Source: a virus
Direction: 5' to 3' (one strand)
Length of the DNA stretch: 38,985 bases
IMG/VR virus record: IMGVR_UViG_3300014202_001569
Coordinates: 90,218 to 129,202 of that record
Each line of letters begins with the position of its first letter. The first letter of the stretch is position 1. The position numbers and the translations under genes were made by a program. A model generated the notes under the pieces. The model was not told where the DNA came from. It did not search any database and saw only the letters and a list, made by a program, of their open reading frames with translations. Positions 1,048-36,754 of this stretch are shown in pieces.

Positions 1048-1063
1048 TGGTACAATTGCAATT
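1048..1063 (-). repeat. 16-bp junction motif, copy 1
   Basis: + strand TGGTACAATTGCAATT; overlaps the TGA stop of 1063..1356. Confidence 0.95.
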
Positions 1064-1356
1064 CAGCACATGGCATAGGATGCCTTAGAAGAAATCACGA
1101 TCTTAATGGACTTCTTATATCCAGGTTTAATATCCATGAATATAGTTTTCTTAACTACTTCTTCACCGCAGACGTAGCGAATTTCAATTTCTAGGCGAAC
1201 TGGCTCCGTGAGTGGTTGCGTCTTATAACAGGTGTTAGCTTCGATTTGTTCGCCGTTTATAAAGAGTGAATAGGGTGTACGGCTTTCAACAGCAATTTCA
1301 AATTGTGCGGGTTCGGCTGGAATGAGACTTGCGGCCAGTAGAATTAAATTGAACAT
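1063..1356 (-). CDS. secreted small beta-sandwich protein (PEGA/TIGR03000-like, tentative)
   Basis: Signal-peptide-like MFNLILLAASLIPA, LFINGE motif, AAGGAG RBS. Confidence 0.5.
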   Translation of the reverse strand: MFNLILLAASLIPAEPAQFEIAVESRTPYSLFINGEQIEANTCYKTQPLTEPVRLEIEIRYVCGEEVVKKTIFMDIKPGYKKSIKIVISSKASYAMC

Positions 1357-1395
1357 ATAGACTCCTTCTATTCAATTATAATCTATTTGTTGTAT

Positions 1396-1608
1396 TTAAT
1401 CAATCCTAATCCACGGTTGATCGTAGATGCAATTAGGCTCAAAATCAATTGGCCTTTCATACTCAGGGACAGGCTTATCACCTACTTGCCAGCCAACTTG
1501 CCGCAAATATCGCTTGCCATCCTTCGTGAAGACTTGATAAACCTCGTTATAGGTGTCTTCAATGACCGTTGCGCCGTCAGGCACCTCGTTCCAGTGATTG
1601 ATATACAT
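1396..1608 (-). CDS. hypothetical phage protein
   Basis: ATG at 1608 directly follows the stop of 1610..1831. Confidence 0.5.
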   Translation of the reverse strand: MYINHWNEVPDGATVIEDTYNEVYQVFTKDGKRYLRQVGWQVGDKPVPEYERPIDFEPNCIYDQPWIRID

Positions 1609-1609
1609 T

Positions 1610-1831
1610 TTAATCCTCAATTTCAATTTCTTCGTCCAGGTCCAGGGAACCGCCCAGGCCAGGAACGCCATGAATCCATTCGGCGGTAGCAACCGCAATG
1701 AATGCTGCTCCATAGGTTGGAGAGAGTCTAGGAAATTCTTTAACGTGGGTGAGTTCGTAAACCTTTTTTTGACCAAATTCACGCACTACTACCTTCGTCC
1801 CTATTTTTAATTCTTTTGCTTTGACAACCAC
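1610..1831 (-). CDS. hypothetical phage protein
   Basis: ORF in the packed array. Confidence 0.5.
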   Translation of the reverse strand: MVVKAKELKIGTKVVVREFGQKKVYELTHVKEFPRLSPTYGAAFIAVATAEWIHGVPGLGGSLDLDEEIEIED

Positions 1832-2175
1832 GTTTCCACATCCTTTGTGTCCAACATAGATAGCACCGCGTCGGGCTTAGCGCGGAAAATCGCCCTTAAT
1901 GTTTCCGCCGTCGATTGAGGAATGGGTTCATCCTCTTCAATAACATACATTTCGTCTAGCTTGTCGATAGGGACGCAGCACTTACTGGTCACGTCATCGA
2001 CATAAATACAGCCACGCGAACAGTTTGCGGGGAGAGTTTCATCGGGCCGTGCGATGATCCGCATATCACTCATGAAGATATTCGTTCCTCTTACGCAAAG
2101 ATACTGTTCGCCGCTGTCATTATCCAGGGCAGATTCAGGATTCTTTGCATAATCAGTCAGTCGGATATGGAGCAT
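1807..2175 (-). CDS. hypothetical phage protein
   Basis: 122-aa ORF with an AGGGG RBS-like sequence. Confidence 0.6.
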   Translation of the reverse strand: MLHIRLTDYAKNPESALDNDSGEQYLCVRGTNIFMSDMRIIARPDETLPANCSRGCIYVDDVTSKCCVPIDKLDEMYVIEEDEPIPQSTAETLRAIFRAKPDAVLSMLDTKDVETWLSKQKN

Positions 2176-2183
2176 GGTTCCCC

Positions 2184-2396
2184 TTAGTAGTCGAAGGTTA
2201 GTCCGTCGTGTTCGCTAAGACGGTGGCCATCGACCGTAATATATTCATCGGTCAGACCATTGGCATCATCGGCGTCTTCGGCATTCTCGGCGTCTTCAAT
2301 ATCGAAAACTCGCCGTTCCACGTCATCATACTTGGCCTTAGAGACGCAAGTAATCGAATCATCAAATACGCTGGTGTAGGTGACTTCACGAATCAT
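2184..2396 (-). CDS. hypothetical acidic phage protein
   Basis: GGAG RBS; 70 aa. Confidence 0.6.
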   Translation of the reverse strand: MIREVTYTSVFDDSITCVSKAKYDDVERRVFDIEDAENAEDADDANGLTDEYITVDGHRLSEHDGLTFDY

Positions 2397-2413
2397 GCTT
2401 TTGCTCCAGGTAG

Positions 2414-2562
2414 AAAAAAAGTGTTGCGGCGTGAGAGTTCTACTACTGAGTCTTCACTAGGTTTCGCTATGATTGGTTTCCCAGGTTTCCTAGCTATCAT
2501 TCAGTCCACTCTCAGCGGCGGTTTATTACTCGTTTATATTGAGTTGCCTCGCCGCAACACTT
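2414..2562 (-). ncRNA. putative structured non-coding RNA or cis-regulatory element ending in a U-tract
   Basis: 13-bp terminal inverted repeat (2419-2431/2550-2562), stacked 7-bp TGAGAGT/ACTCTCA helix, further internal helices, T7 tract; intergenic. Confidence 0.6.
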
Positions 2563-2566
2563 AGTT

Positions 2567-2582
2567 TGGTACAATTGCAATT
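2567..2582 (-). repeat. 16-bp junction motif, copy 2
   Basis: Exact copy, 1 nt after the TAA at 2584. Confidence 0.95.
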
Positions 2583-2583
2583 C

Positions 2584-3975
2584 TTAGAACGCAATCTCCA
2601 CGATAAGACGGAACAGGTAGTCCTGCAAATCGCGGCTCATATCGGTCGCACCCGTAGTATGATGTGCTACTTCCTCAAGCATAGCCTTGAGCAACGTATA
2701 GCCCATCGTGGCATGGTCAGTATGAATGTATACGATACCATTCTTATACATTCCGCCCGTTTGTGCTTCCCCGCTCATAATGGGATTGAAGCACTTGACA
2801 GGCGGCTTTTCCCGACCGTTCAGCTTACCATAGGTTTCGAGCAGATTCCAGACCATATCCAGTGCTTTGAGGGTATCTGGAGTAGCTTCGGATTCGGTAA
2901 ATCCTTCCTTTTCCAGACCATCCAGAACGTCATCTTCCGTCTGAATGCCCAATTGCTGGAGCGTTTGGAACCAATTACCTTCGATCTTAACAGGCTCAAA
3001 ACCCTTCTTTTGGACGAAATCGCTAACAGCCTTCTTGCCTGAAACAAGAACAGCATTATCACCAGCAACCGTCTTGAAAGCGGCCTTGAACTTGTCCGAA
3101 CGAGTCTTCTTAACCTCCTTGTTATCATATTCATTATGAACGTAGCTGGTTTCCAGCTTGCTTTCAAAGACCTTGCGGCCTTCAATTTGCGACTTGAGAA
3201 TCTTGGCCAAATCGCCAGCTTCTGCCGTGCTAATTGCCTTGGAGCAAGCATAACGCACGTCCCAAACTTGCGCATTACGCGATTCATCCAGGGCCAATTC
3301 ATCGCCCAAGTTATAATCGAAGACGCTTTCCTCTTCGACGCGGGAGACAAGCACGCCCTTCTTATAGATTAGGACATTCTTGCCAGTGCCCAGCTTCGGG
3401 AGAATCTTCGTGTTCAGCAAATGCGGCTGAGAGTAGTGAAGGAAAAGAGTTCCCAACTGCGTCCAACATTCCTGAATTTCAGGAGTCAGCGGCAGAAAGA
3501 CAGCGGTATGTCCTTCCTTGGCACGAACCTTATCCACCACTTCAAATTCCACGTCCTTATAGCTACCACCAGCGATAGTAGCACCGTCGATGGCATTGGC
3601 GACAAATTCGCGGAACGCCATTGCGATCTTAGTCCAATCTTGGACACCCCATTCCAGGGTAAAACCCAAATCTTCGGTAGCCGACTTCAACGTACCGTCG
3701 AAATCCTTGCCACCATACTTGACGCAAACCTGATTGAATTGCTGACCGCTCACCATACGCGGCTTAGAGAAAAAGAACATCTTGAGGGTGCCAGGACAAA
3801 TGGCAACGTCATGATTCTTACGCAAAAGCAAAGCCAGACCATTCTTGCTGCCGCTACCATACTGGCCGATAGTACCAGTCGCACCAGCGGAGCGAGTAGT
3901 AGAAACGCCCAGCAAGGTAAATGCACACGGGTCAGCAACGCCAGGATTGCGAATCATCAGGTACTGGTACTGCAT
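2584..3975 (-). CDS. GHKL-type ATPase with permuted motif order and a C-terminal zincin-like domain
   Basis: IRNPG, LLGVSTTR, IGQYGSGSK, REFVANAIDG and GHT motifs; C-terminal LEEVAH. True start probably ATG 3975 (GGAG RBS), not 4155. Confidence 0.65.
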   Translation of the reverse strand: MQYQYLMIRNPGVADPCAFTLLGVSTTRSAGATGTIGQYGSGSKNGLALLLRKNHDVAICPGTLKMFFFSKPRMVSGQQFNQVCVKYGGKDFDGTLKSATEDLGFTLEWGVQDWTKIAMAFREFVANAIDGATIAGGSYKDVEFEVVDKVRAKEGHTAVFLPLTPEIQECWTQLGTLFLHYSQPHLLNTKILPKLGTGKNVLIYKKGVLVSRVEEESVFDYNLGDELALDESRNAQVWDVRYACSKAISTAEAGDLAKILKSQIEGRKVFESKLETSYVHNEYDNKEVKKTRSDKFKAAFKTVAGDNAVLVSGKKAVSDFVQKKGFEPVKIEGNWFQTLQQLGIQTEDDVLDGLEKEGFTESEATPDTLKALDMVWNLLETYGKLNGREKPPVKCFNPIMSGEAQTGGMYKNGIVYIHTDHATMGYTLLKAMLEEVAHHTTGATDMSRDLQDYLFRLIVEIAF

Positions 3976-7503: not shown

Positions 7504-9604
7504 TCTTCACCTTCTTCTCGAAATGCCCACCGAAGATACTTTCAGTCTGCGCTTCGGGATTGGAGCCAGTGCTGATTACCAGTGGTTCGGCAAGAGCAAG
7601 GTCAATATGCAGGATTTTACCAGTTTGAATATCGAAACTGATATGCGGCTCAATACCACGTCGCTTGCCTTCACTCTGCTTCACCGAATTGGTAGCCTTA
7701 TCGGTACGAGCGCTACGCAAACCGTTAGTGGTCTTGCGGAAGGCGATAAACACTTCGTTCTTAACTCCAGGCTTACGCGGCTGGACGTTATTGTACTTAT
7801 AGGAAACCGCATCCTTACCCTTGGCAATTTCAGACAAGTAATAGCTCGGAACCTCATCCAAGCGAAGCAAGCGGCACCCGTACTGGCTTTCCAGACATTG
7901 CATAACGATCTTGGAGAACAGGAGGTCGAATGGCACCCATACGCCACGCGGACGACTCTTTCGCTTAGCCCTAATCTCAGCCGCCTGCTTAGCAACAGTC
8001 TTACCCAAAACCAGGGAAGCATTCCTGAACAGAATAGCGGCCTTTGGATCACTAGCAACGAAGGAAATGAATTTACGCTCATAAGCCTTATTGCGAAGCG
8101 CCCGTGAGTGTGGCTTGAGTTTGTATTCCTTGCCCAGCGTGCGGACATAGGTATCCAAAAGCTTCTTATTATGGGCGCTCAATACCACGGTGCGAGGTTC
8201 ACCATAGATGGCGGCACGGCCAGCCAGCCCTTGAATCATGGCGGCGGCGGTCGAATACCTCCAGGTGAAATCCATAAAGATTTGGACTTCCTTGGGGAAA
8301 CGATTCGACATACGGCCCTTAGCCGTCACCACGATCAGAAACATAATCTTGTTCTGAGCGCAATGACTGATTTGCTCCCGCAATTCCTTATAGCTCATTT
8401 GCTGAGTATACTTGATTACGCAGAGCTTACCGCCAAACTCTTCCTTAACCTTTGCTACGATCTTATCCGTGCATTCATCATTGTTGATAAAGCGTGCGCA
8501 AAATCCAGACTTGCCAAGGGTGACATAATGACGGAAGATACGATTGATACGCTTCATCAGGAGCGTGAAATAGGTATTACAATCCTTCACGCCGAAGTCA
8601 GCCCAATCAATACCATAGGTATCGCCAATCTTCTCCAGGGCTTTATGAGAGAAAGCAGCCTTGGGATAGAGTGGAATTAGGTCTGAACCTTGCAAATCAT
8701 CGAAAGAATAGATATGCGGCGTGACAATCGCCACGTCCACGTCTACATGATGACCGTTAATCATATTGAATCCAGTGTACTTCAAACCCAGCTTCAAATA
8801 GATGGGTTCGACATACTTGGACCAATGATAAGTAAACGGCGTAGCAGAAACAAAGATAATCTGGTGGTTCTGATTCGCAAACTTCTGGCGAACTTCAACG
8901 CCAAAGATAGCGTCGGCAATCGACAGTTTGTTCTCTTGGACGTGCGCTTCGTCCCAAATAGTAATGAGAGTCTTGCCTTGCTTCGTGAGCGAGTTCATAC
9001 GCTCAATAATTTCACGCTTCAAGGAAGCCTTGTTGGTCATGCTCCAGATATGCGGCTTGAAGCCACCGTTCTTACCAGAGCCTTTATCACTATCACCATT
9101 CTGGATGACATGCCCATAATTCCTAATTTCATTGCTGGAATTTTTCATATCAACCCGCTGGAGCCACTTCACGAACTTATGATAAGTGTCAGCGGTCATT
9201 TCCTCAATAGTCGTGTCGCCAGGACAGACATAGAGAAATTCGCAGTCTTGCTTATGAAGGTCATGCCACATGCGCTTAAGCCAGAGAAACAGGATGCAAG
9301 AGCCATTCTTGCCACCCTGAACAGCATTAACGGCACTATACAAACCATTGGCTGGCTTAAATAGCGTGTTAATGCCCGTCGTCTTGACAAGCATCAAGAC
9401 AGCGGATTCAATTTCGTTATCATGAATTTCAGGTGGACCGCCAGCGGTCATATAGATGCTTACTTCGTCAGTAGTAAGCTCAGAAGGCGGCATAGTGAGA
9501 AGCGGAACATTGTATTTCTTCAAATACTTGTTCACTCGTTCAGTAAAACTAACAAACCACTTCTCAAAGATTGGCTTTAGTTCATCGTACATAGAATTGT
9601 CCAA
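7496..9604 (-). CDS. superfamily 2 helicase-like ATPase (Z1/restriction-associated type)
   Basis: AVQGGKN (Walker A variant), WDEAH, VSATP, QGLAGR..IYG (motif VI). Confidence 0.7.
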   Translation of the reverse strand: MDNSMYDELKPIFEKWFVSFTERVNKYLKKYNVPLLTMPPSELTTDEVSIYMTAGGPPEIHDNEIESAVLMLVKTTGINTLFKPANGLYSAVNAVQGGKNGSCILFLWLKRMWHDLHKQDCEFLYVCPGDTTIEEMTADTYHKFVKWLQRVDMKNSSNEIRNYGHVIQNGDSDKGSGKNGGFKPHIWSMTNKASLKREIIERMNSLTKQGKTLITIWDEAHVQENKLSIADAIFGVEVRQKFANQNHQIIFVSATPFTYHWSKYVEPIYLKLGLKYTGFNMINGHHVDVDVAIVTPHIYSFDDLQGSDLIPLYPKAAFSHKALEKIGDTYGIDWADFGVKDCNTYFTLLMKRINRIFRHYVTLGKSGFCARFINNDECTDKIVAKVKEEFGGKLCVIKYTQQMSYKELREQISHCAQNKIMFLIVVTAKGRMSNRFPKEVQIFMDFTWRYSTAAAMIQGLAGRAAIYGEPRTVVLSAHNKKLLDTYVRTLGKEYKLKPHSRALRNKAYERKFISFVASDPKAAILFRNASLVLGKTVAKQAAEIRAKRKSRPRGVWVPFDLLFSKIVMQCLESQYGCRLLRLDEVPSYYLSEIAKGKDAVSYKYNNVQPRKPGVKNEVFIAFRKTTNGLRSARTDKATNSVKQSEGKRRGIEPHISFDIQTGKILHIDLALAEPLVISTGSNPEAQTESIFGGHFEKKVKNA

Positions 9605-9639
9605 ATCGGTAAAAGGAAGTTTTAGTTCGTTCTACGCTT

Positions 9640-9667
9640 ATCATAGCCCAAATTTCCAGTTTGTCAA
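9640..9667 (-). promoter_or_regulatory. sigma70-like promoter upstream of the helicase
   Basis: TTGACA-16 nt-TATGAT on the minus strand. Confidence 0.55.
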
Positions 9668-9714
9668 AAGGAATCTTTGGGCCACCAACCACAACTTCGG
9701 GCTTCTGCAAACTC

Positions 9715-9730
9715 TGGTACAATTGCAATT
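9715..9730 (-). repeat. 16-bp junction motif, copy 6
   Basis: Exact copy; supplies the TAA stop of 9729..9872. Confidence 0.95.
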
Positions 9731-36704: not shown

Positions 36705-36743
36705 TACCAGTTGAGCGAGCATGATCTGCTCGCTCAACTGGTA
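36705..36743. repeat. perfect 17-bp inverted repeat overlapping motif copy 18
   Basis: TACCAGTTGAGCGAGCA-TGATC-TGCTCGCTCAACTGGTA. Confidence 0.9.
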
Positions 36744-36754
36744 CAATTGCAATT
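36739..36754 (-). repeat. 16-bp junction motif, copy 18
   Basis: Exact copy; supplies the TAA stop of 36753..37217. Confidence 0.95.

Follow-up and report, generated by a model that had tools for sequence, protein, structure and literature searches.

A candidate promoter-proximal, terminator-closed leader RNA in a metagenomic record of a large phage

Promoter-proximal terminated leaders and small RNAs of large phages are already known as a kind. In the giant phage 201phi2-1, 8 of 11 small RNAs arise by premature termination in 5′ untranslated regions (UTRs) (PMC11512511), and the short lambdoid transcript from PR′ to tR′ is processed into the small RNA StxS (PMC7547250). Here, we describe a putative noncoding RNA element of ∼145 nt at 2562..2414 (minus strand) of the window, by which we mean the whole stretch of 38,985 nt that was analyzed, forming the final 39 kb of an IMG/VR virus record of 129 kb (IMGVR_UViG_3300014202_001569) that is ∼60% complete. 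Like the 5′ UTR-derived small RNAs of 201phi2-1 and phiKZ (PMC11512511), it combines a predicted start site with a predicted terminator less than 250 nt further on, in front of a protein gene, as a short structured RNA in a large phage genome; unlike them, with ends mapped by ONT-cappable-seq and one member conserved across genera, its ends are predicted, it is absent from relatives and it shares no sequence similarity with them. The lambdoid arrangement (lambda 6S RNA; StxS of Stx phages) is alike in that a promoter reads into a nearby terminator, the genes behind need readthrough and the by-product can be a small RNA. However, that system requires the Q antiterminator and a qut site (a lambdoid feature), tR′ is a local hairpin whereas the stem described here encloses the whole RNA, and the phages are unrelated. 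Promoter/stem-loop cassette joints of the PeSL type are said to have been described in T4-type phages by Arbiol et al. in 2010. Such joints resemble our locus in that small genes subject to shuffling meet at a recurring promoter with a stem-loop, and in that the content of the junction varies among relatives, but in our record the promoter precedes the stem-loop, and a 145-nt multihelix body stands in place of a short hairpin.

The element fills the 187-nt gap between the stop codon of a 523-aa open reading frame (ORF) (TAA, 2586..2584) and the ATG of a 70-aa ORF (2396), and all positions below are on the minus strand unless stated otherwise. All features listed by an earlier, sequence-only reading were present when their coordinates were checked (the helices, the T7 tract, the position of the ribosome binding site [RBS], the tetraloop and the second partner of the 5′ GCGGCG). 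A pair check and an inverted-repeat search (repeat I5) both returned a perfect 13-bp closing helix, P1, joining AAGTGTTGCGGCG (2562..2550) to CGCCGCAACACTT (2431..2419); in the inverted repeat the 5′ strand is AAGUGUUGCGGCG (2550..2562) and the 3′ strand is CGCCGCAACACUU (2419..2431), the latter contiguous with the 3′ strand of P2. The U7 tract (T7 in DNA; 2414..2420), whose first two U residues pair with the AA of P1, is the predicted intrinsic termination point. P2 (7 bp, TGAGAGT/ACTCTCA; 2514..2508 with 2438..2432) stacks on P1 via this continuous 3′ strand, P1 and P2 together forming one 20-nt duplex strand, and is followed by P3 (5 bp, ACTGA/TCAGT; 2505..2501 with 2449..2445) and P4 (CTAGG/CCTAG, 5 bp plus a G·U; 2493..2489 with 2461..2457). 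The apical loop of this inner arm (P2-P3-P4; 2432..2514) contains a UGG-GAAA-CCA hairpin (TGG-GAAA-CCA in DNA; 2483..2474), a 5-bp helix, ATGAT/ATCAT (2500..2496 with 2473..2469), that crosses P4 as a possible pseudoknot, and three GAAACC repeats. The repeats (GGAAACC, GGGAAACC and GCGAAACC; 2475-2490 and 2460-2467) fall within 31 nt, and could be an internal duplication or a repeated protein-binding word, with no significance attachable to them. Between the 5′ strand of P1 and the inner arm lie an A/U-rich one-sided linker with a small ACUC/GAGU hairpin (2521..2549), which is the loop of an alternative 5′ hairpin, and an internal CGCCGC (here, B; 2515..2520), which repeats the opening hexamer of the P1 3′ strand and lies immediately next to P2. 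The GGAG RBS of the 70-aa gene (2404..2407) lies outside the structure, so any control by the element would act on transcription. The only ORF in the element (35 aa, 2500..2393) had a weak RBS and matched no PHROG family, and was judged to be a chance ORF.

A perfect copy of a phage promoter-like motif (TTGCAATTGTACCA, 2567..2580) stands directly in front of the element, downstream of the 523-aa ORF stop codon, in agreement with the earlier statement that the element starts 4 nt after a motif copy. The motif, TT[GC]C[AG]ATTGTACCA, occurs in 79 co-oriented copies in the 129-kb record, nearly all directly before genes or RNA genes. In 14 of the 79 copies (∼1.2 expected), an ATG opening an ORF of 54 to 222 aa lies exactly 8 nt after TACCA, a spacing that we infer is best explained by a fixed start at the ninth nucleotide, giving leaderless mRNAs. 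Five further copies have an ATG at 2 to 4 or 9 nt after TACCA, and by implication about one in five of the genes served by the promoter would have a leaderless or near-leaderless mRNA. Because of the fixed spacing in the 14 copies, the transcription start of the element was placed provisionally at G2558 (start zone 2558..2562), the ninth nucleotide after TACCA and the first G of GUUGCGGCG, which is inside P1. AAGU (2562..2559) is at once part of the promoter's conserved (A/T)AG(C/T) block and the beginning of P1, and the exact start would set how much of the helix is retained, from 9 to 13 bp (minimum free energy [MFE], −43.0 to −48.2 kcal/mol).

Other noncoding units stand behind the same motif: at genome position 70080 tRNA-like sequences, at 73233 a 133-nt RNA with a mini-tmRNA, and at 60285 an RNA of 200 nt that has a canonical terminator. 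In the 133-nt RNA, too, the closing helix begins at the predicted +1. The last of these units (genome 60285..60066, minus, ∼29.9 kb before the window) consists of a promoter copy, ∼200 nt with strong predicted structure and no ORF, a canonical terminator and the next promoter, and looks like a stand-alone noncoding RNA gene. Elsewhere in the record, genes behind this promoter end in canonical G+C hairpins followed by T6-7; since its units end in hairpin-U terminators, the polymerase acting at this promoter evidently responds to intrinsic termination signals. Two further arrangements at motif copies are recorded here as separate observations. One copy within the window (9728..9604, minus) has an unusually long leader of ∼110 nt, predicted to be structured, ahead of a 702-aa ORF. 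Two others (window 36705-36743, minus, genome 126950; and genome 75621, minus, outside the window) are immediately followed by long perfect hairpins with a common core stem, GCGAGCA/TGCTCGC, the only two such palindromes in the record. The 17-bp stem at 36752 takes in the promoter's own TACCAGTTG, and the pair could represent a shared operator or a 5′ stabilizer hairpin.

To the question of how much of this structure exceeds chance, dinucleotide shuffles (n = 200) gave different answers for different parts. The whole element had an MFE of −48.6 kcal/mol, compared with −31.3 ± 4.0 kcal/mol for the shuffles (z = −4.28; 0/200 as good). Taken alone, the P2-P4 arm reached −22.2 kcal/mol (z = −2.36; 5/200 shuffles) and the alternative 5′ hairpin z = −3.16 (0/200), while the apical 38 nt were within chance (z = −1.5; 20/200) and a 5-bp crossing helix arose in 2.9% of shuffles. 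From these part-by-part scores, the P1/P2/P3 rod and the alternative hairpin exceed chance, and the tetraloop hairpin and the pseudoknot do not; the apical pairings and crossing folds proposed earlier are thus present in the letters at a level that random sequence also attains. The plus strand folds as well (−49.3 kcal/mol), and the strand assignment consequently rests on gene orientation, the promoter motif and the U tract.

Folding of partial transcripts, a check suggested by the sequence-only reading, predicted the following order of events: the 5′ GCGGCG (2555..2550) is captured by the internal CGCCGC once this is synthesized, the alternative hairpin belongs to the best structure up to nt 133 while P2-P4 fold, and the full P1 takes over only when its 3′ strand appears. 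The two CGCCGC copies, which compete for one partner, lie directly 5′ and 3′ of P2, so the strands would exchange by branch migration over a short distance at the base of P2. Of the shuffles, 20% contained a hexamer complementary to the 5′ strand at some interior position, but only 0.8% had one directly next to P2. When the alternative was forced, the resulting hybrid had −40.1 kcal/mol, compared with −48.2 kcal/mol for the closed form (8.1 kcal/mol less stable), with an estimated barrier of 3.5 kcal/mol from the alternative to the closed state and an equilibrium probability of the closed form of >0.999. The earlier claim that the GCGGCG/CGCCGC pairing excludes the closing helix did not hold, as it displaces only the upper 6 bp of P1 and the lower 7 bp form in both states. 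On these predicted energies the alternative is read as something other than a thermodynamic switch, and the duplicated CGCCGC as a folding guide, with a kinetic toggle appearing less likely.

Taken together, these features are best read, with a probability of about one half, as those of a promoter-proximal leader RNA that is closed by a terminator and also gives rise to a small RNA. According to this model, the phage promoter copy would fire inside the opening bases of P1, and during synthesis the internal CGCCGC next to P2 would first hold the 5′ GCGGCG while the P2-P3-P4 arm folds. The emerging 3′ strand CGCCGCAACACUU would then take the 5′ strand by short branch migration, yielding a G+C-rich helix of 9 to 13 bp ahead of U7, that is, an intrinsic terminator; the partial-transcript folds and the low barrier support this folding order. 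Most transcripts from the promoter would stop at U7 as a ∼145-nt RNA whose paired 5′ and 3′ ends would likely make it stable, and in those that escape, the element would serve as the leader of an mRNA for the 70-aa gene and the small genes that follow. Transcription arriving from the 523-aa gene upstream should be halted by this helix as well. Four parts of the model are predictions: where transcription starts, that it ends at U7, the order of folding, and whatever the released RNA may do in trans. In its favor, the 13-bp stem contains six consecutive G-C pairs and is followed by U7, two residues of which lie inside the stem, as expected of an intrinsic terminator. The promoter copy (2580..2567) and U7 (2420..2414) lie less than 250 nt apart, both RNA ends being predicted. 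Against it, the terminator stem encloses 118 nt of structured RNA in place of a loop of 3 to 10 nt, which is atypical, and a consensus terminator scan did not call the element, with no local hairpin in the 45 nt before the T run. A start at G2558 would moreover leave P1 with only 9 bp and put 2 nt between the stem and U7, and the comparable fold of the plus strand also counts against a leader.

Behind the element lies a block of five small ORFs on the minus strand (1063..2396), at 2396..2184, 2175..1807, two within 1831..1396, and 1356..1063. No further copy of the promoter motif was found from U7 through these five ORFs, the next being at window position 1061. Together with the promoter directly in front, this strengthens the frame in which the sequence-only reading had placed the element (a stand-alone small RNA or an attenuator/riboswitch-like switch), of which the switch proved weaker than stated. 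An internal T4-type late promoter that would start the escaping transcripts (TATAAAC in the linker) was considered and rejected, since TATAAATA occurs three times per strand against an expectation of four to five and is not enriched. Within the downstream block, the sole candidate for a host-type promoter is a sigma-70-like site at 1403..1375 (minus; TTGATT-17-TATAAT, 10/12 matches, the best in the first 6 kb), in the A/T-rich gap before the 97-aa ORF 1356..1063. Neighboring proteins matched only families of unknown function in Pfam and PHROGs, and PADLOC returned no match for a defense or antidefense context.

Searches for relatives of the element were negative throughout. Rfam 15 (riboswitches, ribozymes, 6S, Y RNA/YrlA, tmRNA and small RNAs) gave no match in the whole window at the gathering threshold, and at E ≤ 10 over 2150-2850 only two noise matches, both outside the element; ARAGORN called no tRNA or tmRNA gene in the window, and a T-loop motif is absent from the element. 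The view taken from the letters alone that no known family could be assigned is therefore upheld. The search for homologues that had also been proposed found none in two related phage records or in viral, metagenome or genome collections. In the phage collection, blastn matched only a neighboring ORF in LR756511, a 595-kb uncultured phage that is the sole relative there (67.5% nucleotide identity over that ORF only). BLAST and a covariance model built from a single sequence, the element (R1), recovered only the element itself from its own record, LR756511 and IMGVR_UViG_3300037137_001027 (159 kb), and R1 found nothing in the loci retrieved with the flanking genes. In the viral contig collection, exact patterns and loop-only degenerate ones gave zero or chance matches, a 20-mer of the element gave two chance matches in the genome contig collection, and a promoter 16-mer gave only single-copy chance matches in the viral contig collection. 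As judged from these comparisons, the candidate element family is new, but a singleton in the collections reached.

The 70-aa protein has 10 homologues in public data, those of 66 to 77% identity being on short contigs, and the junction beside its gene is different in each relative. Three relatives (L010, L014 and L018) carry a 60-nt hairpin, a promoter-like site and two small ORFs; L013 carries a promoter-like CAATTGTCCA, an unrelated 78-nt hairpin, T6 and a small ORF; and L015 and L016 carry unrelated ORFs. A tblastn search of the relatives' junction ORFs against the element gave no match inside it, and the reading of the element as a decayed ORF was rejected on that result. The L013 junction (L013:2048-2135, contig FKKE01067664.1) has a design of its own, in which the promoter-like CAATTGTCCA-TAAGGTAGG is the 5′ strand of the 78-nt hairpin (−40.6 kcal/mol), and a T6 run comes directly after the hairpin. 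A terminator could form there in transcripts that come from upstream, whereas those from the embedded promoter, which would not contain the 5′ strand, could read through. The loop of the same hairpin holds a tRNA D-arm-like GCCGAGTGGT.

A stand-alone gene for a trans-acting small RNA (a protein decoy or a base-pairing RNA), with a terminator leaky enough to serve the downstream genes, is an unlikely but still serious competitor of the terminated leader. The element has its own promoter copy, paired ends and a U tail, the record makes several other promoter-driven noncoding RNAs, and a 29-nt A/U-rich segment is exposed together with the three GAAACC repeats. However, complementarity of the element to the 129-kb record is at chance level (two 12-mers versus 2.1 expected), and no phage-encoded Ro/TROVE partner was found. 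The comparison with the RNA units at 73233 and 60285 also weighs against a separate gene: these have the promoter motif in common with the element, and their closing helix likewise opens at the predicted +1, but they contain tRNA-like parts or a canonical terminator of local type and a new promoter copy comes immediately after them, whereas the element has no tRNA-like feature and runs directly into the RBS of the next gene. A Y RNA/YrlA-Ro system was rejected, as the record and two relatives gave no TROVE match in a search that detected its positive controls and the element has no tRNA-like module.

A regulated switch, riboswitch-like or in the form of a protein-dependent attenuator, is more doubtful. 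A ligand or protein bound to the inner arm would set which CGCCGC holds GCGGCG: with the internal copy, the weak 7-bp base of the terminator would allow readthrough, and with the 3′ copy the full 13-bp terminator would stop transcription. As in known riboswitch and attenuator platforms, GCGGCG has two mutually exclusive partners, one of the helices stands on a U tract and the element is in leader position, here with no other promoter copy to serve the downstream genes. The identical hexamers on both sides of P2, with a single partner to share, are an arrangement rarely met by chance (the 0.8% given above), and the alternative hairpin, significant in its own right (z = −3.16), dominates until the 3′ strand is made; the alternative pairing of the earlier description is in this sense real. 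It is weaker than was claimed, given the 8.1-kcal/mol deficit, the 3.5-kcal/mol barrier and the lower 7 bp of P1 that persist in both states. Unlike the established platforms, the element has no conserved aptamer and no Rfam match, with no riboswitch match even at E ≤ 10, its alternative opens no more than 6 of the 13 bp and falls well short of the closed form in stability, and its terminator is the closing helix of the whole domain as opposed to a separate downstream hairpin. The putative sensor (apex and pseudoknot) is not beyond chance, no homologues were found that could reveal a conserved pocket, and the downstream genes offer no hint of a ligand. A more specific version, in which the element would be a compact OFF switch of a new class whose sensor closing helix is also the terminator stem, whose CGCCGC flanks of P2 form a branch-migration toggle, and in which a ligand or phage protein on P2-P4 would decide transcription of the five-gene block, is more speculative still.

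There may also be no dedicated RNA element at all, which we regard as improbable, somewhat more so than a switch in general. The locus would then be the terminator or processing site of the 523-aa gene combined with a nonfunctional insert in the junction of a shuffling cassette, possibly with an RNase III cut in the 20-bp P1/P2 stack, to which the continuous 20-nt duplex strand would lend itself. Absence of the element from all relatives reached, a junction that differs in each of them, an apex that is not significant and a region that is a mosaic of promoter-terminator cassettes are all consistent with a neutral insert. On the other side, the order here is promoter then terminator, the reverse of the record's usual joint of terminator then promoter, and a random insert would show less order than is seen in P2, P3 and the duplicated hexamer next to P2.

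HDV-like ribozymes, including the theta form, are nested double pseudoknots with a P1 of 6 to 7 bp bearing a G·U at the cleavage site, a P1.1, a P3 with a loop of 7 to 8 nt, and a cytosine in J4/2. A self-cleaving ribozyme with a minimal topology of this type (helix, helix, hairpin, helix′, helix′) is very improbable: the crossing helices, the 3-bp hairpin joined directly to the 3′ strand of the first helix and the AGCGAAA that precedes the final strand are reminiscent of how strands are ordered in HDV-like ribozymes, but the first helix has 5 bp instead of 7, starts with A-U and lacks a basal G·U, P1.1 cannot form from a GAAA loop of 4 nt, P4 is absent, no Rfam ribozyme matched at E ≤ 10, and the crossing helix is at chance level (2.9%). 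On inspection, the element did not show the features of an HDV-like ribozyme, a 6S RNA, a K-turn, a GNRA receptor or a miniature inverted-repeat transposable element (MITE), and these readings were rejected.

Being a singleton and predicted only, the element has its value at present as a candidate RNA, and not as an established new RNA class. If real, it would extend by one the noncoding RNAs of a phage lineage in which unusual RNAs already abound, and it would provide a clean natural case of a terminator stem that encloses a whole folded domain, in which identical hexamers compete for one strand, a layout convenient for the study of cotranscriptional strand exchange and termination.
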